From IMG/VR virus record IMGVR_UViG_3300020183_000108, positions 1 to 52,355 of that record: a stretch of DNA of 52,355 nt. One strand, 5' to 3'. This stretch comes from a virus (lineage: Duplodnaviria > Caudoviricetes). The position numbers and the translations under genes are program-made. Numbering within the stretch: the stretch's first letter is position 1; every line of letters starts with the position of its first letter. Shown here piece by piece: positions 11,401 through 36,155 of the stretch. The notes beneath the pieces were generated by a model that did not search any database, was not told the DNA's origin, and saw only the letters and a program-made list of their open reading frames with translations.

Positions 11401-14400
11401 CGGTCCGGGTTCACCGCAGTCCGTCTGGGCTTCGGCCATGAACGATGATGGTGTTGGTTACACCCAGATGTCTGAAGATGGTCGCCGCGCTTGGGATAAC
11501 GAAGTGGCTACCAGTCCTGTGCCGCCCACTGCGGAACGGGCTCAGTATTACCAAGACACGTTTCTGCCCCAAGATACCCAGCGCGGCATCAGTTACGTGC
11601 GCAGCCTTGCCAGCAAGCTGGCATCTGCCAGCGATGAGCGATACATTCAGATCACTGAGAAGCTGAGTGAGTTGGCCAGCTCTGATAACCAACGTGTTGC
11701 CGCTGAAGCGCAGCGTGCCCTGGATGGTGAACTATCTGGTACGCCCGGTAAGTTCTCTCTTGCCGGATGGAATACCCGTCAGGGGACGGTCAGCGCCGAT
11801 GGTTCACCCACCACACCGATGGCTGTCGGTCGGGTGCGGATGCTTGTCAATAACTTCGTAGCTAAACTGGCAACCAAACCGAAGGTCACGGTGGTGGCCA
11901 ACCAGCAGGAACTACAGCGCACCAACCCGGCGCTGTATCAGCAAGCCATGGCTGCTCGCCCGCAGGGTGACTTCGCCACGGCCAACGCTGCTGGGTACTC
12001 CTTCGGTGACGGCAACGTCATCATCTTCACTGACCGTATTGTCAATGAGCAGCACCTGCGGTTCGTGCTGGCCCATGAGACCTTCGGCCACTTCGGTATG
12101 CGCGGGATCATGCCCGCAGCGCGCTTCGATGCGCTTATGGAAAACATCTATGAGACAGATGGAAGCGCCAAGCTGGCAGTTGATGCCGCTATGGAAGTGC
12201 GCGGGCTGAGCAAGGCCGAGGCCGTTGAGGAGTATCTATCTGACTACGCTGGGCTGCTTGAGACCAGCACGGTTGCCCGGGTGTGGAACACTATCAAGGG
12301 CTTCCTTGAACGCCTCGGTGTGAAGTTCGGTGATACAGCCACTCGGTACTTCCTTGACCAGTCGCGCCGTTATGTGCGGCAGGGTGCCCAGGGTGTGACC
12401 TTTGATGCAGAGGCGGTGGCAAAGCGGCTGCACGCTGTTGAGTACGGCGATACCGGCACTGGCCGGTTCAGCCCGCAGGCAGCGATGAGCGCCAATGCGA
12501 AGGCCAACTTCTTCGCATCACAACTGGCCGAGTTTCCGACAAGCTTGGCTGATGCTTGGAACACAATCACCGACCAGAAAGAGAATATAGCTGATATATA
12601 CACGGACTTTAAGAACAAGTTCCTCAGCCTTGCAAATTACACCGGGTTGAAGAATCCGGGGGCATTCAAGTTTGTCGATTTATTGAGCCAGACCAATTCA
12701 AAATCTATGGCAGTTAAGTCAGCATTAAATGAATACCTGCGCCCTGTGCTCGATGCTCCCAAGGCTGTGCAAGATAAAATCTCACGCGCCATGTATAGTG
12801 CACGTAGTTACAAGATCAGTCAGTTCAAAGCCGGGGAACTCGGCAAAGAACCTCTGTTCAAGGTTGCTGCTGATGGTAGCCTCACCCCAAATACGGCTGA
12901 GCAAGATCGGATTTTCAAAGCCGGTCTGATGACACTCAAGCAGATTCAAGATGGCTACTCGTACAACCGTGAGATCGAAGGTACTGATGGTAAAGTCACC
13001 ACGGTAGAGGAAACCGTGGCCGGTCAAAAGGACTTCACCAAAGAAGATTACGCTTTGTACGAGCGTACTCGGCGCGCTGTATTCAATGTTGAGATGCAGC
13101 TACTCGAAGCCGAGTATGGCGAGCTCATGGCTAATAAGCGCCTGACCAACAAAGAAATCAGTGGGTTCATGGCAGATAACAAACTCACTGCTGAGGATCG
13201 TCGCTTCGTTGATTCTATGGCACGCCGCGCACTGGCTCTCTACACCGAGGGTGCCGGTACTGACCCCACAGGTAACGCTGTGATTGACCCGAAAGCCATG
13301 AAGAAGTCCGATGATTTCTTGGCCGCTGTTAATACTGCGGTGATCGGCACTGATACAGACCGCACTGAAGCGCCCGATGTCAAAACCGGCTTGAGGATAC
13401 GCGACTACTTTGTTTCGCCGCAGGCGGCTGATGCGTTCATCACTGAGCTGACCGCGTTTAAGAATCGTCGTCGGGAGATCACTGATGACAATAGGTTCTT
13501 CCTACAAGGGAAAGTGAAGCAACTCATTCTCAACGAACACAACCTGAACACCAGGGATAAGATCGCACGCCGCGCTGTGATGACCGGATACACCCCGGTG
13601 TTGCGTGAAGGTAGGTTTCAGACCCGCGTTCAGGCATATGTTGGTAATAAGCTCGTTGAGGTAAAAGACGCGCATAAGGCGCTGCTTTCCTACTCTCAGT
13701 TTAACACCGGGCCAGAAGCTAAAGCTATGGCTGTAATGCTCGATAAGGAGTTCGAGGGTAAGACGTTTGAGGTTTTGGTACGCAATGACGCCGGTGAGTT
13801 TGTGCCCACCAGGGTGACGCTTCGTGCTACGACCGGGCGCACAGTGAATGCCGTAGCCGCTGATCCACAGCTTAACCTACAAGATTTCCTGTATGGGCTG
13901 AACCTGTTCAACGTAAATCTCAACCCGGAGAGCATGGCACGTATTGTTACTACGCTGTCGCGTCAGGGTGATAGCGCACGCAGGCGGTTGGAGTACTCTC
14001 AGACCCCCGGTTTCGATCCAACCACCGGTGTCTATGCCATCTCACGGCATATTGAGGGTCGTGCTTCCACCATTGCTAAGGCCAGCACGCGGCAGGCGCT
14101 GCGCGAACTGATGAACCTCGAACTCCCTGAATCACGCACCCTGTGGACGGGTAACAAGCCCCTGGTAGATCAGTTGCAGGCTGAGTTGAACAGACTCAAT
14201 GCCGACCCAAATGCGTCCGAGGATGCCAAGCGGTACACGCTGCAACAACTCACACAGGCGCAGTATCAATACCGCATGACCAACCCAGAGGGGCGTCCTG
14301 AACGCTCTATGATGTTCTATAACCAGTCTGCCTCCACCATGGACTACCTTGAGGGCAGCAAGTATGTAGATGAGACCGACTTCGGCGCAGGTCCTGTTGC

Positions 14401-15982
14401 TTCTCGGGTCCGTGCTTACACCAGCATATGGCAGCTTGGCGGCAGCATGGCTCAGGGTGTCCTGAACCTGATCAGCCCGTACACTAACTGGATGCCATAC
14501 ATGGCTAGCTTCAATGCAAAGAGCGGCTTCGGTGGCGGGTTCAGTATCGGTAAGGTGCAGGCAGCTTACCACTCAGCTTTCCGTCAGGTGGGTGCGCCGG
14601 GTATTCTCCGCATGGAGATGAACCGGGCTGAGTTCTATGACAACGTGGCCAAAGACCCAGCCCTCCAAAAGAAACACGGTCTGACGGTTGATGAAGCTCA
14701 GGCAATCGCCACTGAAATCCGTGAAGGTAAGCTGATTCCGGCGCAGTCAAATGCACTCATTGCCACTGCGCGGGGGCAAACAACCAACAAGTTTCTGCGT
14801 AAGTTTATCGACGGGTACATGCTCCCGTTTAACTTGTCCGAACAGGCGGCCCGTCGTGCGGCTTTCTTGGCTGCGTACCGCTTGAAGCGGGATCAGGCCC
14901 TCGGCGCCGGTAAGTCTCAGAAGGAAGCACAGCAGGAAGCAAGTGACTTCGCGGTGAAGTCCATCGACCTGACTTTAGGGGATTACTCGGTTCTGAACCG
15001 GCCACCCGCGTTCCGGGCTGGCATCACATCCTTCCTCTATATGTACAAGACGTACCCGACCACCACGATCCAGTTACTGGCCAATCTGTCCCGGCCTGCG
15101 CAACTATCCATGCTGGCAGGGCTGTGGTTCCTTTCCGGCGCTGCGGGTCTGCCGTTTGCTGAGGACCTTGAAGACCTTATTGATACCATCTCGCAGAAAC
15201 TAGGGTTCCGGCAAGGTAGCATCCGGGGTGAGATCATCAAGCACATCGAGGCTACGTTCCCTGGCATGTCAGCGCCGTTCCTCAAGGGCTTGGTAAATGA
15301 GTTCCTGCCAATACCCATGGACATCGCTTCTCGTACTTCTGTTGGTAACATCGTCCCTGGTTCTGGGATTGCCTTGGCTGGGGCAGATGTGGGACGTGAA
15401 GTTCTTGATATTCTCGGCCCCGCACCCGGTTTCCTCCTCGGCGCCGCTTCGATGGCGCGTAACTTGGTGGCGTTCCCGTTCTCGTCACGGGTAAGCCTGG
15501 AAGATGTGGCCCGGGAATCGCCGATCACCCTGCTCCGGTTAATGGGTGACTCGTACGCTTACCTACAGTCGGGTGCCGTGGTTGACCGCCGTGGGTATGT
15601 GGTCAGTAAGGATATGGATGCGGGGACCATTCTTACTCGGTTGTTTGGTTTCTACCCCACGCAGGCGGCAAACCAGTACGATGTTATCCGCATCGCCAAC
15701 CGCACCACTGACTACCAGAAGGAAGCCGTGGCTTCGTTCCGTCACGCTTGGATCAAGGCTACCCTGCGCGGTGATACGCAGACAGCCAACGAGATCATGA
15801 ACGACGTGCGCGAATGGAACAACGCCACACGCGGCACCCCACTGGAAATCAGGAACTTCTCAACTGGTAACGCCAGGGCATTGCGTGAGGCTCGGCGGTC
15901 AGCGAGTGAGCGCGCACTGCGCGCGGCACCCCAGGCAGCACAGGGAGACATCCGGGGGTATATCGACGCCCTGATCGATTAG
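8441..15982 (+). CDS. Giant ejected polyvalent protein with zincin metallopeptidase domain
   Basis: 2513 aa. N-terminal glycine-zipper/TM region, LAHETFGH...AVEEYLS zincin motif at 12074-12091, and a C-terminal helical region typical of large podophage ejection proteins. Confidence 0.8.
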   Translation: MASGLYYAPLELAESLAMPVAPESTTQASGLGNLGAAGDVYGITTVGGNAGDIYGLTQQAMQRTAGLAPPLPAPPTAAPEGTGAAFYSPSTGKMFAGGMAFDQRDVQSALRAAQQFTAAAGTRPPPDVPDWRPISRVAYENYLTGLSAPRGFGENLVLGARGAVGGFISGIGRGAEMLGATTVGPAIAGVGEAITGQDEFDKQRSALIQQSNSLVSNILDAAVQGIPSVAMSAGAGLVGGIVGGAVGGPAGAAAGATTAATAAQAGRALAAARGIGAVVGLGAVSFPQQLNTFYEAAQNARDAQGRPAYDVNDPNVQLTIAGAALGTSLLDVIAPGRVAFGLSRALTEGAQQAGTQALTGLARARAVGGSAARSGFEEAATEAAQTLAERAVFDPEFRRQLNAEDMKALAPYIVNTYGQDVLIAAGAGALLGAGFGGAGRFIETRGAGSQPRDILDPKQTTAVGGTDAGETGTEPTTIGGPPPGTPPGTPPGTPPGTPPGTSGVSTRVVSTSPGALTIAPGAMDLTQTGYLQAYARRMPDPLGVAGFGGADDTFNRMVSGPAPGTEAPLTSYIYPGPILTEPELTTQPRTPLNVIPGAPAVAPYTPTPTAPIPSGSQPITLVAPGADALRAQRGLTATAQQRQVEQDIQSRVQANASAPRPDVLYDPADPGTTQRAMRSLGVSIEEVLRLRDPMRAMAGAPVTLRDVNEAAALLGRTRASGAVAVRPTPEVSSIMAQAMRDAGLTVEDVVAARNRLRSGPVTYEDVRIAARRKGTELPVRMARTAAPEPMVETALPPALEALAAAPTPTPTPATKLKKGKARAAQVREDEQGGVGQRTGTGGPVPSKGEDRLKSTKKQRGGGQTGRSNLTRQGRAAAQEVTPAPATEVAAQRPLEQPAPSATERAAPSVTPRAEAAAPSAVDRQITRAATSADPTAQLRTLKNELITRRDATADAGRSTTELTGAIARIDALLAEGPITTPAVEGVSGPGSPQSVWASAMNDDGVGYTQMSEDGRRAWDNEVATSPVPPTAERAQYYQDTFLPQDTQRGISYVRSLASKLASASDERYIQITEKLSELASSDNQRVAAEAQRALDGELSGTPGKFSLAGWNTRQGTVSADGSPTTPMAVGRVRMLVNNFVAKLATKPKVTVVANQQELQRTNPALYQQAMAARPQGDFATANAAGYSFGDGNVIIFTDRIVNEQHLRFVLAHETFGHFGMRGIMPAARFDALMENIYETDGSAKLAVDAAMEVRGLSKAEAVEEYLSDYAGLLETSTVARVWNTIKGFLERLGVKFGDTATRYFLDQSRRYVRQGAQGVTFDAEAVAKRLHAVEYGDTGTGRFSPQAAMSANAKANFFASQLAEFPTSLADAWNTITDQKENIADIYTDFKNKFLSLANYTGLKNPGAFKFVDLLSQTNSKSMAVKSALNEYLRPVLDAPKAVQDKISRAMYSARSYKISQFKAGELGKEPLFKVAADGSLTPNTAEQDRIFKAGLMTLKQIQDGYSYNREIEGTDGKVTTVEETVAGQKDFTKEDYALYERTRRAVFNVEMQLLEAEYGELMANKRLTNKEISGFMADNKLTAEDRRFVDSMARRALALYTEGAGTDPTGNAVIDPKAMKKSDDFLAAVNTAVIGTDTDRTEAPDVKTGLRIRDYFVSPQAADAFITELTAFKNRRREITDDNRFFLQGKVKQLILNEHNLNTRDKIARRAVMTGYTPVLREGRFQTRVQAYVGNKLVEVKDAHKALLSYSQFNTGPEAKAMAVMLDKEFEGKTFEVLVRNDAGEFVPTRVTLRATTGRTVNAVAADPQLNLQDFLYGLNLFNVNLNPESMARIVTTLSRQGDSARRRLEYSQTPGFDPTTGVYAISRHIEGRASTIAKASTRQALRELMNLELPESRTLWTGNKPLVDQLQAELNRLNADPNASEDAKRYTLQQLTQAQYQYRMTNPEGRPERSMMFYNQSASTMDYLEGSKYVDETDFGAGPVASRVRAYTSIWQLGGSMAQGVLNLISPYTNWMPYMASFNAKSGFGGGFSIGKVQAAYHSAFRQVGAPGILRMEMNRAEFYDNVAKDPALQKKHGLTVDEAQAIATEIREGKLIPAQSNALIATARGQTTNKFLRKFIDGYMLPFNLSEQAARRAAFLAAYRLKRDQALGAGKSQKEAQQEASDFAVKSIDLTLGDYSVLNRPPAFRAGITSFLYMYKTYPTTTIQLLANLSRPAQLSMLAGLWFLSGAAGLPFAEDLEDLIDTISQKLGFRQGSIRGEIIKHIEATFPGMSAPFLKGLVNEFLPIPMDIASRTSVGNIVPGSGIALAGADVGREVLDILGPAPGFLLGAASMARNLVAFPFSSRVSLEDVARESPITLLRLMGDSYAYLQSGAVVDRRGYVVSKDMDAGTILTRLFGFYPTQAANQYDVIRIANRTTDYQKEAVASFRHAWIKATLRGDTQTANEIMNDVREWNNATRGTPLEIRNFSTGNARALREARRSASERALRAAPQAAQGDIRGYIDALID
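9884..9943 (+). repeat. Five copies of a 12-bp tandem repeat encoding (PPGT)5
   Basis: cctccgggtact x4 followed by cctccgggtacg. Confidence 0.95.
10905..11081 (+). CDS. Nested (+1 frame) small basic phage protein of the MPLKxG...KQAVAI type
   Basis: AAGGA SD at 10893-10897, then GTG. Translation MPLKSGKTNKVVSANVQELVDRYQAKGKIGSSRPKNKEAAVKQAVAISLAKAGRQRKK*. Resembles a widespread standalone phage gene. Confidence 0.72.
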   Translation: MPLKSGKTNKVVSANVQELVDRYQAKGKIGSSRPKNKEAAVKQAVAISLAKAGRQRKK

Positions 15983-27004: not shown

Positions 27005-27302
27005 CGTCGCCTCCTCCTCTCACTTCATAGGCCAGCAGAAACAGGATGCAGCAGCCAGCGTGCGCCAAATGCGACAGGCCAGTCTCGGGATCACAACGCT
27101 CACCCCTCCACCATGCCCACATGTGGCGCATCAACGCAGAGAACGGGCGGCTCCATGCCATGCCTTTCTCCCAGTTACGCGGTGCGTACTTGGTTGCGCC
27201 GTAGTCAAGCACCTTCACGATCTGCTCTACAGCATCGGATGGCAACAGGTGGTAGGGCAGCTTGCCTGTGTCATCCTTGCGCCCCTCAGTCATCTCGGTC
27301 AT
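26991..27302 (-). CDS. dATP/dGTP diphosphohydrolase domain protein (DUF5664-type)
   Basis: GRKDDTGKLPYHLLP, GATKYAPRNWEKG, ALMRH and DPETGLSHLAHA. Confidence 0.88.
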   Translation of the reverse strand: MTEMTEGRKDDTGKLPYHLLPSDAVEQIVKVLDYGATKYAPRNWEKGMAWSRPFSALMRHMWAWWRGERCDPETGLSHLAHAGCCILFLLAYEVRGGGDDDRP

Positions 27303-27567
27303 CTTGATTCCCCTTACGTGTAAGATACACAGTCTTCTCTGTGTTGGTTATGATGGTTGATAGCTGCACGTTGTAGAACTCTGCAAGCTTCATCAGTTTG
27401 GGAAGTGACGGCATCTGAATGCCGCGCTCCCAATTTGATATACTGGTTTCAGAAAGTCCTGTTGCACCATAAACGGTAATGGCTTTGCGACCGCGCACTT
27501 TGCGTAGTGTACGCAGCACAACACCAAGGGACTTGGCGAACTCATCGAGTTCTATCTTGTCAACCAT
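27286..27567 (-). CDS. XRE-family HTH regulator
   Basis: LRTLRKVRG...TGLSETSISNWERGIQMPSLPKLMKLAEFYNV. Confidence 0.85.
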   Translation of the reverse strand: MVDKIELDEFAKSLGVVLRTLRKVRGRKAITVYGATGLSETSISNWERGIQMPSLPKLMKLAEFYNVQLSTIITNTEKTVYLTRKGNQDDRDD

Positions 27568-27659
27568 ATCACCAACCCCACTGCACAGGCTGTTCCAAAG
27601 AATGATGCAAGCCATATCAAGCACAAGGCTATAATGGCATCGAGCTTTACGTTCTTCAT
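27552..27659 (-). CDS. Small single-TM peptide (35 aa)
   Basis: GGAGG SD and ATGA overlap. Translation MKNVKLDAIIALCLIWLASFFGTACAVGLVIWLTR*. Confidence 0.55.
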   Translation of the reverse strand: MKNVKLDAIIALCLIWLASFFGTACAVGLVIWLTR

Positions 27660-27883
27660 TGTCTCTCCTCCGTTGCGGATAAATAATACCCAAGGGCGCT
27701 GAGCACCGTATCCATATCAACGATACTCGGCACGGTGTCACCGCTGCGCCACCGCCGTAGGGTGCGTGTACTTATCCCTGATCTTGTGGCCAGGGCTTCG
27801 AGCGTTAGCTGCTGCCCTTCCATCAGTGTGTCTAAGGTGTGCACCAGACGATGCACGTCCTTGTTAATTGGTTTCAGTTTCAT
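27656..27883 (-). CDS. XRE-family HTH regulator
   Basis: LTLEALATRSGISTRTLRRWRSGDTVPSI. Confidence 0.82.
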   Translation of the reverse strand: MKLKPINKDVHRLVHTLDTLMEGQQLTLEALATRSGISTRTLRRWRSGDTVPSIVDMDTVLSALGYYLSATEERQ

Positions 27884-28667
27884 CGAACACTCCATACATT
27901 TTGCGAAGGTTGAGACTTTGGTTGGTCAACACTCTTTTGAAAACATGTTTGGCAACGTCCACAGTTGGTGCGCCATACGCCACACCGAACACATCTCTAA
28001 CGATAAGCAGCAGCAACTCAGTGCTTGGCGCACCGCGCTTGATGTCGTTGAACAAAAGCGCAAGTGCAGATGGCGCACCCCAGTCAGTACGCATGGCCCA
28101 TCTGGGGATGGTATGTTCTTCCCCTACCTCACGAATTACACCGTCAACCACACCTAGCTTGACCCGTAGTTCAAACTGCTTCTTGAACACACGCAGATCA
28201 CGCAGCCATTCCTTACGCCTGTCTGTGTTGGTAGTGGGCGGCGGTGGTTCTGTGCTGACACACTCACCCGTGATCATGTTAAACCGAATACCGGGGTAGT
28301 GTTTATGTTTGAAATAGTACCGTGATGTCATTCCGTGTACTACTACGGTATTGATATGCTCGACAGATGGTTTGTAACGACCGCGCGGTGGTACAGCTCT
28401 AAAGGGGATAGTTGTTGGTAGTATTTTCTTGAACACGTACTCCGGTATTGGCTTCGGCGTGTATATCTCGGCTGTATTATCCGGGCGGATGACAGCCACC
28501 AGTTTGTGCGGTGTGCCCCAGTATAGATGGTAGATATCGCCGTACCCATTCTTCTCCCGCACCAAGCGGAACAAGTGGTTAAGCGGCTTACCCTGCTCAG
28601 GCTTAAGTGCTTTTGCAAACACCGCTGCTGCATCAGCGTAGTTGCTTATCAATGGTTTGTTGCTCAT
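27864..28667 (-). CDS. Hypothetical protein
   Basis: 267 aa, basic, with GAGG SD. Confidence 0.65.
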   Translation of the reverse strand: MSNKPLISNYADAAAVFAKALKPEQGKPLNHLFRLVREKNGYGDIYHLYWGTPHKLVAVIRPDNTAEIYTPKPIPEYVFKKILPTTIPFRAVPPRGRYKPSVEHINTVVVHGMTSRYYFKHKHYPGIRFNMITGECVSTEPPPPTTNTDRRKEWLRDLRVFKKQFELRVKLGVVDGVIREVGEEHTIPRWAMRTDWGAPSALALLFNDIKRGAPSTELLLLIVRDVFGVAYGAPTVDVAKHVFKRVLTNQSLNLRKMYGVFDETETN

Positions 28668-28852
28668 AGTCCCCTCACTTTCACTGTCACTTTATTTCGT
28701 TCGATCTCAACGGTGTGCGTACCCTTGGCTACGCCGACGAGAGTGCTGCACAGAACATCCTTCTCATCAGTCAGAGCGCGAATCCTGCGCTCCAACCAGA
28801 GGCACCACACGGCCAGCACAAGGCCGAGGGTGACCAGCACAGGTTCGCTCAT
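28664..28852 (-). CDS. Small membrane-anchored protein
   Basis: 62 aa with an N-terminal TM helix, coupled to the vWA gene. Confidence 0.6.
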   Translation of the reverse strand: MSEPVLVTLGLVLAVWCLWLERRIRALTDEKDVLCSTLVGVAKGTHTVEIERNKVTVKVRGL

Positions 28853-29952
28853 ATCTTCACCACCTCACCCCATGGTGCCTTGTCGTCGCCGTTGCTAACC
28901 CACAGCACAGGGTGCTCAGGTGCAGGGCCGAAGTCATCGCAGTACAGGTCTGTCAGAAACACAGTGGCAACAGGGTTGATGTTGACTTCCTCCATGAACC
29001 GGAACACAGGACTGAACGCTGTACCGCCACCACCATGAGGCTCGATGTGCAGCACATCATCACGACCAAAGCGGTCGTAGTGGCACACCTTACTGTCGAA
29101 GTAGATAACGTGCAGGGCAGACGGGTTGCTATCCCCCTTGATTGATCGGACCTCGGCAGCGAACTCGTTGAGTTCACGCTGACCAATCGAACCGGAGCAG
29201 TCAACGGCAATGGCGATCTCACCGAGGCCCTCACCCGTCACGCTAGGTAGGTACAGCCCTTGTGAAAGGAACCGCCTGTTGGGCCGTGAGAAGCTACGCG
29301 TGTCGGTCTTGCACTTCTCAACGAAGCGGCGCAGCACATCACGCCAGTCCACCTTGGGATGCAGTGTCTCGTCAATGAAACGCTGCATGTTGGCAGACAG
29401 TTTGCCCATCATCTTCGCAGCCTGCGCTGCCTGAGCTACCTTTACTCGCCACTCAGCCTGCTCCTGTGCCTGCTCAGCAGGGGAACCATCGGCATCCTGT
29501 ACGTCAGCACCGGTGCCGCCGGGTGCACCCTCATCTTCGCTCTGTTCTGGCAAGATGTTATAAATACCGTCACTGGTACCGTTGCCTGTCTGATAGATGT
29601 TACGGTCGAAGCAGCCGCCGTCGATGAACTTGCCGATCTTCTCGTCAATGAGAAGCTGGTTGATCACGTAGTCAGCGGCTTTGTTCCACCGCATAGCCTG
29701 CCGCCCATGCCGCCTGTAGTTGTGATCAAGCATGGGATGAAAGCACTCATGGGCCACAAGGAATGTGACCTGTTCATCAGTCAGGGTGCCAAGGAAGTCA
29801 GGGTTGAACCTGATTTCCTTGCCGTTGGTGCAGGCAGTCGGGATGGCGTCATCCAGATACATAGGCATGTTGAGTGCAACACTGCCGACGAACGGGTGCT
29901 GCAAGATCAGTGCTGTCTTGGCCTTGGCCAAGCGTTTCATATGGTCCATCAC
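28849..29952 (-). CDS. Metallopeptidase-vWA fusion (DUF2201-type)
   Basis: TACTNG, LVAHECFH and WNKAAD zincin motifs. MIDAS DCSGS, GGGGTAF and FLTD. Confidence 0.9.
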   Translation of the reverse strand: MMDHMKRLAKAKTALILQHPFVGSVALNMPMYLDDAIPTACTNGKEIRFNPDFLGTLTDEQVTFLVAHECFHPMLDHNYRRHGRQAMRWNKAADYVINQLLIDEKIGKFIDGGCFDRNIYQTGNGTSDGIYNILPEQSEDEGAPGGTGADVQDADGSPAEQAQEQAEWRVKVAQAAQAAKMMGKLSANMQRFIDETLHPKVDWRDVLRRFVEKCKTDTRSFSRPNRRFLSQGLYLPSVTGEGLGEIAIAVDCSGSIGQRELNEFAAEVRSIKGDSNPSALHVIYFDSKVCHYDRFGRDDVLHIEPHGGGGTAFSPVFRFMEEVNINPVATVFLTDLYCDDFGPAPEHPVLWVSNGDDKAPWGEVVKI

Positions 29953-30326
29953 ACAACCCTCAGAAGGCTGATGCCGTTACGCAGCGGGTCACGACACGTG
30001 AGGTAGTTACCGTTGCCCCACATCTGGCCAGCACGTGACGACACGGACGACTGCACTGACCTCAGATCGAAGTCGCCTACAGGTATGAACACCTCATCGC
30101 CCGGACCCATGGTTGTAATATAGCCAAGGACGTAATCGCGCAGGGTATTGTGCGGGTACTTATGTGGTCCCCGCTTACGCACTTTCTCAGGCACTGGTGC
30201 AGCAACCACAAGGGTGCCGTACTCCGTGCCGTTGGGTGCAATGATCTTGTACTGCACACCAAGGCTATCAATGCGCTTGAGCGCATCGATAAGAACCCGT
30301 TGCTTCAGTTCGGTCCATTCAGTCAT
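29949..30326 (-). CDS. Hypothetical protein (possible DNA-binding)
   Basis: 125 aa with GAGGAG SD. Confidence 0.6.
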   Translation of the reverse strand: MTEWTELKQRVLIDALKRIDSLGVQYKIIAPNGTEYGTLVVAAPVPEKVRKRGPHKYPHNTLRDYVLGYITTMGPGDEVFIPVGDFDLRSVQSSVSSRAGQMWGNGNYLTCRDPLRNGISLLRVV

Positions 30327-30340
30327 CGTTCATTCTCCTC

Positions 30341-31192
30341 TTATATGCCGCTCATGAATGAGCGCATCTTGTCCATGATTTGTTGTGCCTGCTCGGCAGT
30401 GTCTTGCCGCAGGGTCTCGCTTGCCCTCAGTGCATCAGGATGATGCGCTGCCAGTTTGCTCTCCACTTCCTGCCTCATTGCCTCAAGGTTAGGATCATCA
30501 CTGATGTTGAGCCGAGGCAGAAGTTCACACAATTCTTTGGCATGATCAATAAGGCTGTCGTAGATGCGGCCCTTGGGATTACCAAGCTGCCGGGCGATGT
30601 GCTCAACACGCTCAAACAAGCGGTTCCATATGTCACGGGATGCTACCGCATGGGCCTGCTTGAGACGGGATGAAACATCCTCTTGTAACCGTGTCAGTTC
30701 ATCGCTTGACAAGGTCGTACGGAAATCAGTCGAGGGTACAGGAAACACAGCCATGTCGATCTTGAACTTAGCCGCGATCTGGCTGTCATCCGGGTAGTCG
30801 TTATCCAGATACATATTGCCAAGAGAACGCTTGGCTTGCAGCTTGAGTGCTGGGTAATGATGCACGAAGCTGTTGACCAGTGACAGCCACTCACCCTTGG
30901 CAGTACGGAACTTCGTCATGAAGTTAAGATAGTTAGCCGAAGGTAGAAGCTGCGTACCCTCCATGCCCCAGGGCAGCGTGTTGTTGTAGAACTCCGCACG
31001 AATGGCACTGCTCCGAGCATGGACCTGCTCAAGATAGTCGTTAGCAGGCAGAAGCACCTTGTTGAACCGACCAGCATCCTTGCTGGCGTAATTCATGCTG
31101 AGTGCCTGATCGGTTACTCGTTTGTCATGTTTGCGCGCCGTCCACTGTGAGATGGAAAGCTGCACAAGCAAAGCGCGATCACTTAGGTTCAT
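30341..31192 (-). CDS. DUF3150-like helical protein of MoxR/vWA clusters
   Basis: ALLVQLSISQWTARK, TLPW, DYP and LNISDDP, between the MoxR ATPase and vWA genes. Confidence 0.65.
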   Translation of the reverse strand: MNLSDRALLVQLSISQWTARKHDKRVTDQALSMNYASKDAGRFNKVLLPANDYLEQVHARSSAIRAEFYNNTLPWGMEGTQLLPSANYLNFMTKFRTAKGEWLSLVNSFVHHYPALKLQAKRSLGNMYLDNDYPDDSQIAAKFKIDMAVFPVPSTDFRTTLSSDELTRLQEDVSSRLKQAHAVASRDIWNRLFERVEHIARQLGNPKGRIYDSLIDHAKELCELLPRLNISDDPNLEAMRQEVESKLAAHHPDALRASETLRQDTAEQAQQIMDKMRSFMSGI

Positions 31193-31204
31193 CGTTCTGT
31201 CTCC

Positions 31205-32197
31205 TCAGAAAAGTACATCGTTGTGTTTGACTGCCCACTGCGTAAACGCTGCCGTGTTGGCTAGGGCAGGGCTACGCCGTGCCGCTTGGCTGACGGTCAG
31301 TACGCTGAACTCAGGCGGCATACGCTCACAGTACATGCACACTCTTGCAAAGTTACTGTCAGTAGCACGTGTCGCCAGTGCACCAGACAAGGCATAGAGT
31401 GTCGCCGGGTCAGACGGCACATCGGCAGTATCAGGGTGCAGCAGGATGCTGTCAGGGTTAGGCAGCTTGCGGAAGATACGCAGAAACCCCACAAACTCAG
31501 CCGCAGCGCCCTCACCAACAGCACCTTTGAAACATTCGTACTCTGCATCAGGCGGCACTACACCAAGCACAGCGGAGACACCCTCAACCCATGACCTAGG
31601 TGTGGGATTGCAGTCCCGCTGTGGGTCGAAGTCATGCAGCAAGTTAGGCCGGAAGCGTAGGAAGCTGACCACCTCAGCCTTCACACCATGGCTCAGCATC
31701 CATGCAGAGCTGTCATCGAGGTGTGTCTCAAGCTCAAGCACAGTCTCACGGTTACGCAAGTGAGACAGCACACGGTTAGCCCCAGCACGGTCACTCTGCC
31801 TGTTACCAGTGGACACGACAGACCAGCCATCGGCCATAGGTACACCATGCAGGTTCCTTGCCTGACAGATGTTTGCCAGAACCTTCTGCAAGTCGGCACT
31901 GGCTTGGTTACGGTCATCGAAGCAGAGCACACCGCCCCTATCAGTGTCGTGCTGACTGCCCTTGGCAGGGAACCAGTCGGGTATTTTATATGCAAGTGTG
32001 GCACCGTCGATGGTAGGTATGCCGAAGTCCTCAACCAGCATGGTTGGCATGTGCCGCTCGATGTATTGCAGACCTAGATCATGCGATACATCCTGTGTGA
32101 TGGTGGTTTTGCCACCGCCCGGCGGGCCTTCGATACAGACTGTTCGCTGCGCCTTGATAAGCGCCGCAAGTGTAGCCTTCATAAGCTGTGGTCTCAT
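31205..32197 (-). CDS. MoxR-family AAA+ ATPase
   Basis: Walker A GPPGGGKT, Walker B variant LCFDDRN, STGNR, LRNR and PTPRSW. Confidence 0.9.
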   Translation of the reverse strand: MRPQLMKATLAALIKAQRTVCIEGPPGGGKTTITQDVSHDLGLQYIERHMPTMLVEDFGIPTIDGATLAYKIPDWFPAKGSQHDTDRGGVLCFDDRNQASADLQKVLANICQARNLHGVPMADGWSVVSTGNRQSDRAGANRVLSHLRNRETVLELETHLDDSSAWMLSHGVKAEVVSFLRFRPNLLHDFDPQRDCNPTPRSWVEGVSAVLGVVPPDAEYECFKGAVGEGAAAEFVGFLRIFRKLPNPDSILLHPDTADVPSDPATLYALSGALATRATDSNFARVCMYCERMPPEFSVLTVSQAARRSPALANTAAFTQWAVKHNDVLF

Positions 32198-32208
32198 GTT
32201 CTCTCTCC

Positions 32209-33234
32209 TCAGTGTTTACGTGTTGATGGTGCGTAGTAATCGTCAAGGCACTTGTTGAAGTCGTCAACTGTGATGCCAAGCTCCTCAAGCATCAGTGTCG
32301 CAACCTCGGGGTTATCCCACACAAGATCACTCAGTGTGGGAGCAAAGCGATGGTAGCCTGAGCCACGTGCTGCCTTGGTGACGGTCGATGACCAGCCACC
32401 GTAGTCGTAAGCATACTCGTTGTCCTTGGCTGGATCACGCATGACTGGCAGTGCTGCAATATCAAGCTGACACAAACGCTCAAGCAAGTGAGCAGCAAAC
32501 GACACGTCAAGATACTCGTTGCTGGTATGAGCGTTGAAGTACCCAACGCTGAGGTTGGTGCACTCTGGCACAAGGTCAGTGTAGTTAGCCGTATCTGTGA
32601 ACGTACCGCCGGTGTCCAGAGTGAACGGCTTGCCAAGCTGCGCTGCCAGTGCAGAACCAAATGCGTCAGAGGCACAGCGTAACCCTTGGTGTGTGATGAC
32701 ACTGGTGGTGCCACGGCGGTCGAACGCAATGGCATACTGTATGCTGGTCAGTAGCTCTGGCGTGTGTTTGGCGATGTAGGTTGAACCGAGGCCACCCACT
32801 TCCTCGCTGTCATGGAAGATGTATAGACCCGGCACGTTACGCCGGATCATGTTGACCATTAGCCACACACCAACGGTGCAGTCAGCACCAAGGCACGATG
32901 ATTGGGATGTCTCGTGCAGTGACAGCAAGCCACCGCCATAGACCACCTTCTGTGTGCCAGCAGTGCGGTGCGCAGTGTCAGTATGTGATGACCACAGTAC
33001 GGGGTGGTCAGTGAGACTACCCACTTGCAAGATACGATTACCTGCCTTGTCGATGGTCATGCCGGGGATGTCATCTAGGTACTGCTTGCAGAACGCAGTG
33101 ACAGCCTTGGTACCTGCCGGGCGGCAGGTAGTGTGCATGGTAACCAGCTCACGAATGGCTGGTGTGGTGAATGTTGGTGGCTTGGTGAATGGCTTGGTCA
33201 TAGGCTTGGTTGGCTTGGCTGGTGTGAATGTCAT
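32209..33234 (-). CDS. M28/M20-clan Zn peptidase-like protein
   Basis: SHTDT, LGADC, SEEVGGLGS, FDRRG, FTD and NLSVGYFNAHT metal-ligand pattern. Confidence 0.85.
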   Translation of the reverse strand: MTFTPAKPTKPMTKPFTKPPTFTTPAIRELVTMHTTCRPAGTKAVTAFCKQYLDDIPGMTIDKAGNRILQVGSLTDHPVLWSSHTDTAHRTAGTQKVVYGGGLLSLHETSQSSCLGADCTVGVWLMVNMIRRNVPGLYIFHDSEEVGGLGSTYIAKHTPELLTSIQYAIAFDRRGTTSVITHQGLRCASDAFGSALAAQLGKPFTLDTGGTFTDTANYTDLVPECTNLSVGYFNAHTSNEYLDVSFAAHLLERLCQLDIAALPVMRDPAKDNEYAYDYGGWSSTVTKAARGSGYHRFAPTLSDLVWDNPEVATLMLEELGITVDDFNKCLDDYYAPSTRKH

Positions 33235-33252
33235 TGTTGTTGTTCCTTGTTC

Positions 33253-34752
33253 TTATGCTGCCATGGCAGCATTGAAGTCGAGCACATGTTGGTTGTGGTC
33301 ATGAATGGTAGGGCTGGTCGGTGACAGCTTGAATGTGTCGCTGTCGTCATAGTGCTCGGCACAGTCAGTGCACACCATCTCACCATCGTCGTTGTGTGTG
33401 CTGCTCATGAAGTCGTTGGTGTACGCTTCACCACAGTCGGGGCAGACGAAGTAATCATCGCCTGTCTTCTCTGCACACCATGTCTCAGTGGTGGTGCCAC
33501 CACGAGCTGTCCGTACGGTCACCTCGACAGAGATGAAGTGGCGACTGTCATAGTAAGCCCCAGTATGCTCACAGTAGAAAGCATTGTTGTCACAAGCATC
33601 CTGCGACCATGTTTGTGTCGTCTCCCGAAGGCTGGTATCGTTGAAACGGTATCGACATCCCTTGGTGACGACTTGATTGCAACCATGGTCATCTGGGTAG
33701 TTTTCCTCATTGCGTTCACAGAAGAACGTACAGCTCTCGTAACAGTGGTAACAATAGGTATCGCCCTGCACAACTTGGGCCTCGTCTTCATCCACACCAT
33801 CGCCGCAGTGGTCACATGTGTACTGCGACCTGCTTTGGATATACCCGTTGGTATTGGTGGCACTGTACTGACCATCAAAGTCAATCTCAAAGTGGTCACC
33901 GTAATCGACCACACTCTGCACATCACCGTCGATGTAGGGCATGACAAACCTAGAACCGCCGTTCATCTCAATACGGCGCAGCCTTGCACCAGAGAAGTCG
34001 TGGGTACGAGTAAAACCAGCAACCTGTAATTTCTCACGAAGGGTGATCCGCATAGTCTCACTGATGCCATACAGCTTGACGTATGTTTCCTGGGAAGGCC
34101 ACACCAAAGTACGCGCCAGCACCTTGTCGGGGTTGTTGGGGTCACGGATATAGGCAATGGCCAGCGAGTCGCTTCGTGAACCCGTGTAATACACAGCAGC
34201 AGGGTGTACTGGTGTGCCATAATGATCCGTTGGTTTAGCCATGCAGCTTACGTGTGTGCTGCTCTCGCTGCATACTTGTTGGTTCTCATAAGCGAAGATG
34301 AAGGCTTCCTTGGTCTGCTCAATAGTCAGGGTGTAGGTATCTACTGCAAACTTACCAGCGATATCCCTGATCTGGTCACTCGACAGGGTACCAGAGTGAT
34401 AACGAGCAAGATAACGAGTGACGGGCAGCTTGAGCTGTACGTCTTGCTGACCCTTGGTTGGGTTCTCAGTGAACGCCAGCATACCATCAGTGATGGTGGT
34501 ACCTTGGGCCAGATGAACGAAGTGGTCAGGGTTGCAGTAAAGTTCGAACCAGCCTGGCACTGGTGTGTAGGTTCCGTCCTCCAGACGGATGCGTTCTCGT
34601 GCCATCCATGAGTTATCATCAGGATCAGTGATAGCTTGGATACGAGTACGGAAACTATACATACCACGAGCCATCACAGCTTCCTGCGCTGTATCGTAGA
34701 TGATATCCGATACGGGTTCGTCGGTCTCGACATTGATAACTTGATAGGGCAT
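33253..34752 (-). CDS. Uncharacterised protein with SCM...ARTLVW...LYG...PYID core and C-terminal Cys (Zn-ribbon) repeats
   Basis: Start set at ATG 34752 after a GAGG SD. CDHC, CYHC, CPDC and CTDC plus degenerate copies. Confidence 0.75.
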   Translation of the reverse strand: MPYQVINVETDEPVSDIIYDTAQEAVMARGMYSFRTRIQAITDPDDNSWMARERIRLEDGTYTPVPGWFELYCNPDHFVHLAQGTTITDGMLAFTENPTKGQQDVQLKLPVTRYLARYHSGTLSSDQIRDIAGKFAVDTYTLTIEQTKEAFIFAYENQQVCSESSTHVSCMAKPTDHYGTPVHPAAVYYTGSRSDSLAIAYIRDPNNPDKVLARTLVWPSQETYVKLYGISETMRITLREKLQVAGFTRTHDFSGARLRRIEMNGGSRFVMPYIDGDVQSVVDYGDHFEIDFDGQYSATNTNGYIQSRSQYTCDHCGDGVDEDEAQVVQGDTYCYHCYESCTFFCERNEENYPDDHGCNQVVTKGCRYRFNDTSLRETTQTWSQDACDNNAFYCEHTGAYYDSRHFISVEVTVRTARGGTTTETWCAEKTGDDYFVCPDCGEAYTNDFMSSTHNDDGEMVCTDCAEHYDDSDTFKLSPTSPTIHDHNQHVLDFNAAMAA

Positions 34753-34807: not shown

Positions 34808-34836
34808 AACATAGCACGCCCCGCCGATTCGGTCAA
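34808..34836 (-). promoter_or_regulatory. Sigma70-type early promoter with extended -10 and a GANTC site next to -35
   Basis: TTGACC-17 bp (GAATCGGCGGGGCGTGC)-TATGTT, with TG before the -10. Confidence 0.75.
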
Positions 34837-34858: not shown

Positions 34859-34895
34859 ACAATCTATTTTTAGGGGGGACAATCTATTTTTAGGG
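34859..34895 (+). repeat. Direct repeat ACAATCTATTTTTAGGG x2
   Basis: Copies at 34859-34875 and 34879-34895. Confidence 0.92.
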
Positions 34896-35243
34896 ATGGT
34901 GTAGATTGAAAAATAGATTATTTTTATGCTACGATTTCAGTGGGTTACGCCAACAATCTAAATAATCTGTTGGGAATGTGATAGGTTACGGTTTTTATTG
35001 GGGGGTATATAAGTTTACATGTAAAGGTATAGTATTATGCGTTCATCTTTTGTTCTGGGTCGCGCGCGAGGTGTTACTTTTTATATTAGATTAGATTATT
35101 AGATTGTGTAAAGACAATATATAATAGAATCAGTGGTTTACTTCGACAAAACTTATCACAAGTGTAAACTAACCAAGCAAACTTTACCAAAACATCCCCT
35201 GAAATAGATTTTTTAGCGTTAAGTTACAGTCACCTGGATACAC

Positions 35244-35256
35244 TAAGCTCTTGATT
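35244..35256 (-). promoter_or_regulatory. IHF consensus site
   Basis: AATCAAGAGCTTA matches WATCAANNNNTTR. Near matches on + at 35128-35140 and 34935-34947. Confidence 0.6.
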
Positions 35257-35383
35257 TTACTACAATCCAAACAATCTAACTGTATATGAGGCAGCTAGAG
35301 AACGCTATATGTAAGGTTTCACGATGTGCTTGTGAGGCGAGCTATAGGCCCCCGACGTATGGCGAGCGGAGCGAGCACGCTGC

Positions 35384-35421
35384 TGTGGATAACTCGCAAA
35401 GCCGGTGTGCCCTGTGGATAA
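35384..35421 (-). promoter_or_regulatory. Two perfect DnaA boxes
   Basis: TGTGGATAA (reverse complement TTATCCACA) at 35384-35392 and 35413-35421. Confidence 0.75.
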
Positions 35422-35471: not shown

Positions 35472-35651
35472 TCAATCCAGTAGCTCCTCAGCTTTGCTGC
35501 CGTCTCGCCAGCCCTTGATGTACTCTTCAAAGTAGGCTGGCCCTTGGTCCTCGGCGGTCTGCATCCGCTCTCGAGCGTAGCGGTTGAAGTCGAAGCGTCC
35601 CAGCGGCGCTAGCCGCCGATCCGCCCATCCGTCTAGGTAAGCCTCACTCAT
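35472..35651 (-). CDS. Small early protein with YxxGW repeats (possible Rmf-like fold)
   Basis: MSEAYLDGWADRR...EEYIKGWRDG, with ATGA overlap to the upstream peptide. Confidence 0.55.
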   Translation of the reverse strand: MSEAYLDGWADRRLAPLGRFDFNRYARERMQTAEDQGPAYFEEYIKGWRDGSKAEELLD

Positions 35652-35746
35652 GGCGTCATCACCAAAGATACCCAAAACAGTCCACATATGCAGATAACCA
35701 TAAGCACCTTGCCGATGATTTCCGCGCATTTAACGATAGTGTCCAT
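35648..35746 (-). CDS. Small single-TM peptide (32 aa)
   Basis: GGAG SD. Translation MDTIVKCAEIIGKVLMVICICGLFWVSLVMTP*. Confidence 0.5.
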   Translation of the reverse strand: MDTIVKCAEIIGKVLMVICICGLFWVSLVMTP

Positions 35747-35798: not shown

Positions 35799-36155
35799 TT
35801 AGAGGATTACTCGGGAGGATGTGGCGCGCTTGCCGCCCTTGCCTTCGCCCTTGGTAAGCTTAAGCTTCGGTTGCGGGAAGGGGCGCTTGACCAAAACCAA
35901 TTCGATCTTATCCACCGTTTTGGTATAGGCCAGGAACTGCACCACCTTGATCGGCTTCTTATCCAGATCAGGCATATCCGCCACATCAAGCCAAAAAGAC
36001 CAGTTTGAAATGCGCAGGTCTTTCGGCAGTTTTGCCATCTCCCGCAACAATTCGGTGACGTTGCCGGAATTCCAGCGCCCATCGACCCGGGGCTTGATTT
36101 CGAGCACGCCTTCCTTGTTGGCGACAAGAGACACGTTGCCTTCATATTCAGACAT
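35799..36155 (-). CDS. Hypothetical early protein
   Basis: 118 aa with AAGGA SD. First gene of the - strand arm. Confidence 0.7.
   Translation of the reverse strand: MSEYEGNVSLVANKEGVLEIKPRVDGRWNSGNVTELLREMAKLPKDLRISNWSFWLDVADMPDLDKKPIKVVQFLAYTKTVDKIELVLVKRPFPQPKLKLTKGEGKGGKRATSSRVIL

Follow-up and report, generated by a model that had tools for sequence, protein, structure and literature searches.

Organization of the operon at 28664-34752

The window analyzed here is the whole of a 52,355-bp IMG/VR virus record (IMGVR_UViG_3300020183_000108), which has an estimated completeness of 95% and a podophage-like gene set. We studied the minus-strand operon at 28664-34752 of this window, which is the promoter-proximal part of the leftward, non-structural block of the phage; between 25.8 and 16 kb, the same strand carries genes for DNA polymerase, exonuclease, helicase and primase-helicase. 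The operon is made up of two separable modules and is not one fixed system. Module A is a pair of genes, encoding a Cys-rich protein and a zinc peptidase, that is previously undescribed as a unit. Module B is centered on a MoxR ATPase, a DUF3150-like protein and a zincin-vWA fusion protein, a triad that is already known in kind and uncharacterised, its MoxR-vWA pair being in the literature.

Every open reading frame (ORF) listed for this operon in a note made earlier from the DNA letters alone (the original prediction) was found at its position, all on the minus strand (Table 1). The domain naming of the genes was also correct, with DUF2201_N, DUF2201 and AAA_5 scoring above their Pfam cut-offs and DUF3150 and M28 below theirs. 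The genes are tightly packed, with intergenic gaps of 18, 11, 12, 14, -4 and -4 nt from the Cys-rich gene to the membrane-peptide gene. The predicted end of the operon at 28664 did not hold, as orf267 overlaps the membrane-peptide gene by 4 nt, the third successive overlap of this length, and more minus-strand genes lie downstream. A DNA-level search of a 6.3-kb stretch found no match among phage records and E. coli genomes, and NCBIfam and PADLOC scans of the operon proteins gave no additional family information.

Table 1. Genes of the operon and putative control elements upstream of it (window coordinates; aa, amino acids).
Feature	Position	Strand	Details
Cys-rich protein, module A gene 1	33253-34752	-	499 aa from ATG
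MH-clan (M20/M28-like) dinuclear zinc exopeptidase, module A gene 2	32209-33234	-	341 aa
MoxR-class AAA+ ATPase (AAA_5), module B gene 1	31205-32197	-	330 aa
Helical DUF3150-like protein, module B gene 2	30341-31192	-	283 aa
orf125, accessory, between DUF3150-like and vWA genes	29949-30326	-	125 aa
Zincin-vWA fusion (DUF2201_N + DUF2201), module B gene 3	28849-29952	-	367 aa
Membrane peptide, one N-terminal hydrophobic helix	28664-28852	-	62 aa
orf267, unassigned family, possible further operon member	27864-28667	-	267 aa
Promoter-like TTGACC-17 nt-TATGTT, TG before -10	34808-34836	-	Consensus scan; directly upstream of the Cys-rich gene
Operator-like control region, 7 copies of TAGATTRT in both orientations	34859-35278	.	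Motif count

The Cys-rich protein

Since close homologues all begin at the same Met-Pro-Tyr as the ATG at 34752, which is preceded by GAGG 9 nt upstream, we consider the 499-aa form of the Cys-rich protein to be real and a 535-aa form starting at GTG to be unlikely. The protein has an N-terminal domain of ~300 aa and a C-terminal part with two Cys4 zinc (Zn) ribbons (C313/316/334/337 and C437/440/461/464), and its C-terminal third contains another seven Cys. When 1.84 billion cluster representatives were searched with a profile of the family, 5,256 matched at E<=1e-3, the best 150 of which all aligned across the core, and 2,662 at E<=1e-30. The latter number is the safer estimate of family size, because the weakest matches may reflect the Zn-ribbon part.

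No named family was reached from this protein. Pfam gave no match on the core in any of 34 diverse members, cluster look-ups returned only the name "hypothetical protein", and a profile search of the PDB with the family alignment identified only two Zn-ribbon-level matches (E 0.5-0.8). Two longer relatives, of 787 and 839 aa, had no Pfam domain, and no long fused forms (1,160-3,310 aa) were found, which is weak evidence. A single-sequence pattern scan of viral contigs yielded no confirmed relative and an alignment-based scan 50 loci; a pattern scan of genome contigs with a family alignment produced 282 pattern matches, none of which was confirmed.

The core is strongly conserved. Residues R52, S169, C170, Y188, R214, Y228, L242, G246, P272, D275 and G303 were invariant in all 64 sequences compared, which extend down to 27% identity, and W49, E53, R56, H77, H80, Q106, H183 and P184 were nearly so. 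Such a pattern is what an active site, rather than a scaffold, typically shows.

An AlphaFold2 model of the core was obtained with high confidence (predicted local distance difference test 95.1, predicted template modelling score 0.77) for a domain with no significant match among solved structures. Foldseek searches of the PDB with the full-length and core models produced no match at E<=1e-3, the best being E 0.1 for the core. The best listed matches of the core were mostly members of the GNAT superfamily (acetyltransferases, FemX, L-PGS and ATE1; E 0.1-0.9, template modelling score <=0.24), an assignment based on the entry descriptions and known fold assignments. We treat this predicted resemblance as a lead only. 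To the original proposal that the Cys-rich protein might add a modification which the M28 enzyme removes, it lends faint, non-significant support. A fold search of BFVD with the core identified 25 phage proteins at E<=1e-3, mostly uncharacterized, five of them nameless and one a "putative hydrolase". An identity of the core as PcfJ-like (PF14284), to which an Atlas feature score of 0.82 and two BFVD fold matches at E 0.03-0.07 had pointed, was rejected, as nothing in the window matched at E<=10.

The peptidase

The second gene of module A matched phrog_4191 ("peptidase") at 7e-75. Its score with Pfam Peptidase_M28 (PF04389) was 17 bits, below the cut-off of 21.3, and a PDB profile search with the family placed peptidase T (1.9e-8), a tripeptidase (7.8e-8) and a TET aminopeptidase among its nearest relatives. 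As the M28 match was sub-threshold and the best solved relatives belong to M20 and M42, the protein was assigned at the level of the MH clan only.

Analysis of 42 distinct peptidase sequences supported that assignment. H84, D86, D118, E144, E145, D172 and H236 were invariant in all 42, as well as in a separate family alignment, and these include the five metal ligands and the catalytic Glu of the MH clan; we take the ligand roles from known M28/M20 motifs and the peptidase T alignment. The His-x-Asp, Asp, Glu-Glu, Asp, His pattern is the same as in the exopeptidases of the clan (peptidase T of M20B, tripeptidases and TET of M42), but the match is restricted to the parts of the catalytic domain with the ligand motifs, and the phage protein has a C-terminal extension of ~80 aa. 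Complex prediction with the Cys-rich core and the peptidase, each entered as an alignment, scored 0.00 in two runs, which speaks neither for nor against their binding.

The MoxR, DUF3150-like and zincin-vWA proteins

The ATPase of module B was identified by Pfam as AAA_5 (PF07728; 24.3 bits against a cut-off of 22, residues 20-150) and matched phrog_1297 ("ATPase") at 1.2e-61. Its Walker A motif, GPPGGGKT, is intact, and G24, G27, G29 and K30, together with D94 of Walker B, were conserved in 31 distinct sequences. In Walker B the sequence is VLCFD-D, and the residue at position 95, following D94, was Asp in 17 and Glu in 14 of the 31 distinct homologues; a whole sub-clade may have altered ATPase kinetics. 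The partner typical of MoxR ATPases, a vWA gene with an intact metal ion-dependent adhesion site (MIDAS), is present in the same operon.

That partner, the zincin-vWA protein, matched DUF2201_N (1.1e-50; 173.2 bits against 23.2, residues 4-238) and DUF2201 (9.7e-26; 90.7 bits against 26.4, residues 246-367), in that order from N- to C-terminus, and it is of the COG3864 type (phrog_1314, 8e-99). Both its putative active elements, H68-E69-x-x-H72 with H77 and the MIDAS residues D251-x-S253-x-S255, T311 and D335, were conserved at >=95% in 36 distinct sequences. With the invariant residues of the peptidase and a Walker A likewise conserved at >=95%, the expectation that the predicted catalytic residues would be conserved was borne out. 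The label "HNH endonuclease" is attached to this protein in phrog_1314 and in many RefSeq phage records, and it looks like a propagated misannotation, as the Pfam scan detected no HNH domain.

The helical 283-aa protein between them spanned positions 3-208 of the 257 in the DUF3150 profile (PF11348) with a score of 18.0 bits (E 0.0019), against a cut-off of 24.9. We refer to it as DUF3150-like because it occupies the same position in the triad and the Pfam cut-off was not reached. Literature searches on DUF3150 and DUF2201 found no functional account.

The smaller genes have few relatives. No family match to orf125 was found in Pfam, PHROGs or NCBIfam, and its relatives, of which seven distinct sequences were counted, were confined to the closely related loci L004-L006 and, at 28-35% identity, to L051-L054 and L075, next to the same module. 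The membrane peptide has its best 17-residue hydropathy window (2.3) starting at residue 4 and is translationally coupled to the vWA gene, which its gene overlaps by 4 nt; it had no match in Pfam or PHROGs, and its relatives, 60% identical, were found in L004 and L005 only. No match to orf267 was found in Pfam, PHROGs, NCBIfam or PADLOC; of the 39 DUF3150 loci, 15 have a relative of 27-32% identity, located 1-2 kb downstream of vWA.

Two modules that are joined only occasionally

All window proteins were scored against two sets of viral loci, 39 collected via the DUF3150-like protein and 50 via the Cys-rich protein. Some of these loci derive from the same contig or are near-identical, so that the counts below are partly non-independent; the distinct sequences number 42 peptidases, 31 ATPases, 36 vWA proteins and 37 DUF3150-like proteins.

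Within each module the association was strong. Of the 44 viral loci with >=1.1 kb available, 40 had the peptidase gene immediately behind the Cys-rich gene and in the same orientation, one had it at another place in the locus and three lacked it. The order MoxR, DUF3150, vWA was found in 31 of 39 loci, the other eight ending at a contig edge, and DUF3150-like relatives always stood beside MoxR and vWA where the contig allowed. Recurrent neighbors of the pair (clusters present in 13-22 loci) were without a Pfam family, except for a divergent terminase in seven loci. At L013 and L014 the same MoxR/DUF3150/vWA stretch occupied both ends of one 62,412-bp viral contig, an arrangement that suggests a terminally redundant or circular assembly.

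Between the modules the association was infrequent. Of 36 module-A loci with >=4.5 kb available downstream, only seven carried MoxR or vWA, and of 27 module-B loci with >=3 kb available upstream, only two carried module A. The claim that the genes co-occur in other genomes therefore stood, but for two units and not for one. The Cys-rich, peptidase and MoxR genes were adjacent in the window, in L005 and L006, and in distant phages (L051/L075, L052-L054 and L090) that form at least three groups, have Cys-rich proteins of 22-35% identity and arrange module B as MoxR, vWA, orf125, DUF3150 instead of MoxR, DUF3150, orf125, vWA. The association is thus recurrent but not obligatory, since adjacency was confined to a minority of loci that nevertheless includes distant phages with a rearranged triad.

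Based on these counts and on the gene neighborhoods described below, the reading that we favor, with about even confidence, is that these are two independent, horizontally mobile modules, placed among entry-stage genes, which would disarm or re-purpose host proteins in counter-defence or host takeover. An alternative is that the six to eight genes form one integrated machine, in which MoxR-vWA, like NorQ/NorD, CbbQ/CbbO and the CobS/CobT-type chelatases, loads metal into, activates or delivers the zinc enzymes of module A. Maturation of metalloenzymes is a frequent role of MoxR-vWA pairs, and the adjacency of the modules has survived rearrangement, as the distant phages differ in the internal order of module B. 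We regard such a machine as unlikely, however, given that 29 of the 36 module-A loci with room have no module B and 25 of the 27 module-B loci no module A. In addition, the Cys-rich/peptidase pair of three cultured phages (Pasto, KpV71 and CB5) and of plasmid pMC4 has no MoxR or vWA gene annotated within the ~9-17 kb examined of each, and N4-like phages and a Burkholderia plasmid have MoxR-vWA without the pair in the stretches examined.

The Cys-rich/peptidase pair in cultured phages and plasmids

Rhizobium phage Pasto carries the pair behind an ArdA-like gene, ~2 kb from the left end. Klebsiella phage KpV71, which is KP34-like, encodes it as gp11 ("hypothetical protein") and gp12 ("peptidase") just before the primase gene, and gp11 matched the Cys-rich family profile with 99.5% probability (E 2.5e-23). 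The pair also lies just before the primase gene in Pectobacterium phage CB5 (gp13-14/gp15), where the Cys-rich gene appears to be split: the family match covers only the 285-aa gp14 (L098, 4107-5852), from the Ser-Cys motif onward, and is preceded by a separate 291-aa gp13. Compared with the window, the gp10/gp11-type pairs of KP34-like phages (Drulisvirus), those of PhiM1/CB5-like phages and that of Pasto are of the same two families in the same order, with genes abutting or overlapping; the peptidases are 36-43% and the Cys-rich proteins ~23-30% identical. These phages differ in having a genome layout of their own, of the RNA polymerase type, and no MoxR module was seen in the stretches examined.

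The peptidase was identified in 386 phage records, among them 230 from Klebsiella phages, which are of the KP34 type, 51 from Pectobacterium phages and 42 from Vibrio phages; VP93-like vibriophages are carriers. Outside phages, the pair was found on the conjugative plasmid pMC4 of Sphingopyxis, where it follows DUF2958 and ParB genes and has a toprim-domain gene on its other side.

The CB5 genome paper places the peptidase among the conserved ORFs of an "early region", and both genes of the pair are among the core genes of KP34-like phages (PMC4411677). In the parts consulted of the KP34-like and PhiM1-like genome papers, the two are conserved ORFs of which only the peptidase is named, and they are not linked. 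Our literature search found no description of the pair as a unit, and a search for M28 peptidases as early anti-defence genes found nothing relevant; the main text of a paper on leading-region anti-defence genes (PMC11541004) does not contain the words peptidase, VWA, AAA, M28 or DUF. No publication on a KP34 transcriptome was found. The suggestion of an undescribed multi-gene system is accordingly sustained for the Cys-rich/peptidase pair and not for the MoxR-vWA part, which is already in the literature (PMC7824862).

These findings give the pair some wider relevance. It is present in the early region of hundreds of sequenced phages, including KP34-type Klebsiella phages studied for therapy, and on conjugative plasmids, yet the Cys-rich partner has had no family name, structure or proposed function. 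Its recognition as a conserved two-gene unit makes annotations of the type "hypothetical protein / peptidase" a testable candidate for host takeover or counter-defence.

The positions of the pair also bear on a second alternative, that module A serves DNA replication or nucleotide/cofactor metabolism, for example by processing a peptide or amino-acid conjugate on which replication depends. The pair immediately precedes primase, helicase and polymerase genes in KpV71 and CB5 and is between ParB and the toprim-domain gene on pMC4, and strict conservation, as in the KP34-like core genome, is more usual for housekeeping than for counter-defence genes. Against this, no nucleotide-binding or DNA-enzyme family was detected in the Cys-rich core, the pair is next to ArdA in Pasto, and among phages that otherwise replicate in a similar way only some have it. 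On balance a replicative or metabolic role seems to us improbable, and we continue to favor an action of the pair on host proteins.

Relatives of module B in phages, plasmids and cells

Searches of phage records with tblastn identified the ATPase in 539 and the vWA protein in 584, mostly N4-like phages (Schitoviridae; 70-78 kb) and jumbo phages. These pairs belong to the same families as the window proteins (phrog_1297 and phrog_1314), at <40% identity; in the two N4-like loci examined, XC38 and FSL SP-058, MoxR and vWA were adjacent and a DUF3150-like gene was absent beside them. On plasmids, 60 records hold a DUF3150-like relative, mostly from Burkholderiales, and 29 of these were typed as conjugative. 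The plasmid triad has the three genes in the same order as the window at 33-38% identity, and differs in its carrier and in that orf125, the membrane peptide and module A were not seen in two loci examined. On the Burkholderia plasmid pBMC401 the triad is between a PRTRC cassette and type IV secretion system (T4SS) genes, and on a Simplicispira plasmid module B is beside an orphan cytosine methyltransferase. The window is one more example of this triad, which recurrently docks beside the Cys-rich/peptidase pair.

The cellular RavA-ViaA, NorQ-NorD and CbbQ-CbbO systems likewise have an AAA+ ATPase beside a MIDAS-bearing vWA protein. The phage system departs from them in the HExxH peptidase at the N-terminus of its vWA protein, in its short ATPase (330 aa), in its fixed DUF3150-like third gene and in its mobile-element carrier.

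A published study (Iyer et al. 2021, PMC7824862) noted the MoxR and metallopeptidase-vWA pair in jumbo phages and proposed for it a role in assembling virions that involves processing by proteolysis. Extended to module B, this would make it a virion-assembly chaperone and maturation protease, as is known for tail development of the Acidianus two-tailed virus. The proposal is disfavored because the same three genes, in the same order, are also on conjugative plasmids, which make no virions; moreover, module B is on the strand and side of the window opposite the terminase, portal and capsid genes. We give very little credence to a virion-assembly role.

Two MoxR-class AAA_5 ATPases of mobile elements offer precedents for a role against host defences. 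The vcrx089 gene of IncC plasmids (hde of IncC/SXT; an AAA_5/CbbQ_C ATPase) promotes, with vcrx090, evasion of type I restriction (Roy et al. 2020, PMC7498323), and a MoxR ATPase gene of phage Bas54 is needed to overcome the predicted defence DS-28 (HIDEN-SEQ preprint, 10.1101/2025.11.20.689424). Neither is reported with a vWA-peptidase partner in the parts of these sources that we drew on. A tblastn search of 72,556 plasmid records with the window's MoxR gave 78 matches, with no Vibrio or enterobacterial record in the tally (in which 12 groups are unnamed) or among the 40 matches listed. Close homology to IncC Vcrx089 was thus not found, and the likeness appears to be at the level of class only.

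It is also highly unlikely, in our view, that one or both modules are defence or exclusion cargo shielding the infected cell from other phages or plasmids. In favor of such cargo, bacterial conflict systems that combine vWA-MoxR with peptidase effectors have been described (Kaur et al. 2020, PMC7159879), and the pair of pMC4 has HEPN and Abi genes downstream of it. Against it, a scan of the eight proteins against PADLOC-DB 2.0 identified no defence system, giving only P-loop-level matches for MoxR (E 0.004-0.008) and none for the other seven, and the modules occupy core, promoter-proximal positions of lytic-type podophages, including the KP34-like core genome, and not variable cargo islands.

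Proposed function of the two modules

As hundreds of cultured phages have the pair in their early regions and conjugative plasmids carry it too, it is probably equipment for host takeover or counter-defence. The original prediction had the operon acting on host targets right after entry. The ArdA, ParB/DUF2958, PRTRC/T4SS and pre-primase neighborhoods and the two published MoxR-class cases fit that claim, which for the genes of this operon is a prediction. Observed gene structure, modularity, catalytic-residue conservation and neighborhoods are the material from which we infer the activities, early timing, host targets and counter-defence role.

For module A, the Cys-rich protein would contribute a new domain of alpha/beta type, in which the invariant Ser-Cys, Arg, Tyr and Asp would form a pocket, its Zn-ribbon array would recognize a macromolecule, and the dinuclear zinc exopeptidase would act on the same substrate early after entry; the chemistry of the unit may be transfer or hydrolysis. 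We further speculate, tentatively and with the expectation that this is rather less probable than not, that the pair is a new two-enzyme system in which the Cys-rich protein founds an enzyme superfamily of thousands of clusters. Its pocket, maybe on a very divergent GNAT-like scaffold, would act on a host macromolecule selected by the Zn ribbons, transferring an acyl or aminoacyl group or removing one. With the exopeptidase trimming the same substrate, the outcome would be a rewritten host protein terminus or the destruction of a peptide-like immune signal within the first minutes of DNA entry.

Module B (MoxR, DUF3150-like protein, orf125, zincin-vWA and membrane peptide) would most likely be an ATP-driven machine for remodelling and cutting proteins. 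The vWA MIDAS would grip a target protein, the MoxR ring would pull on it and the fused HExxH peptidase would cleave it, with the DUF3150-like protein as a fixed third subunit or adaptor. The anatomy of the module, an AAA+ ring, a MIDAS adaptor and a fused zincin, supports such a grip-and-cut machine. Modules A and B would not need each other.

Several observations weigh against an early action of both modules on host proteins. The function of all the operon proteins is argued from sequence and neighborhood, and the case for the Cys-rich core as an enzyme is drawn from its conservation pattern, with no significant structural relative (best PDB E 0.1). The ATPase activity of MoxR may be weak, as the catalytic Glu of Walker B is Asp in the clade of the window protein. 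In N4-like phages the MoxR/vWA pair is among middle and replication genes and not at the very start, and in Autographiviridae the Cys-rich/peptidase pair abuts primase and helicase genes, which would fit a replication or nucleotide role equally well. On pMC4 the HEPN and Abi genes are 3-5 kb downstream of the pair, which may leave room for a defence-island context. Lastly, the published cases of defence evasion concern other MoxR-class proteins, and no IncC plasmid was seen among the 78 plasmid records matched by the window's MoxR.

Control region upstream of the operon

A promoter-like site directly precedes the Cys-rich gene (Table 1), and both its hexamers are kept in relatives L005 and L043; as a consensus match, it is a putative promoter. 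Further upstream, all seven copies of TAGATTRT in the window are inside the operator-like region, compared with 1.28 expected for the whole window, and none of 100 shuffles reached seven. Several copies are kept in L005 and L043, and two belong to a tandem AAAATAGATTGT repeat that closely precedes the promoter-like site. The repeats are probably operators for one of the phage's helix-turn-helix (HTH) regulators. Two overlapping genes for Xre-type HTH proteins (79 and 151 aa; 27286-27895, minus strand) are directly downstream of the operon, are kept in L004-L006, and are candidates for binding the repeats.

A terminator-like hairpin (35467-35446) is upstream of the promoter-like site, and two small conserved minus-strand ORFs (35472-35729 and 35799-36155) lie further upstream. 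Just downstream of the hairpin are two exact DnaA-box nonamers on the minus strand, at 35384-35392 and 35413-35421 and 21 bp apart. Two such nonamers in the window compare with 0.22 expected, a number reached by 1 of 100 shuffles, and they may mark an origin or host-DnaA-dependent regulation. Together, the features of this region are consistent with a regulated start of the leftward unit, presumably read by host polymerase. The status of the operon as "first-expressed" in the original prediction is likewise something that we infer.

Other features of the window

The plus strand carries terminase, portal/adaptor and major head genes from 37.2 kb onward, and, within 1-16 kb, genes for an internal virion protein and a 2,513-aa ORF. 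The latter (8441-15982, plus strand) had no Pfam match, and only its last ~500 residues matched two function-unassigned PHROGs (phrog_11358 and phrog_21376); it is probably a giant virion or ejection protein.

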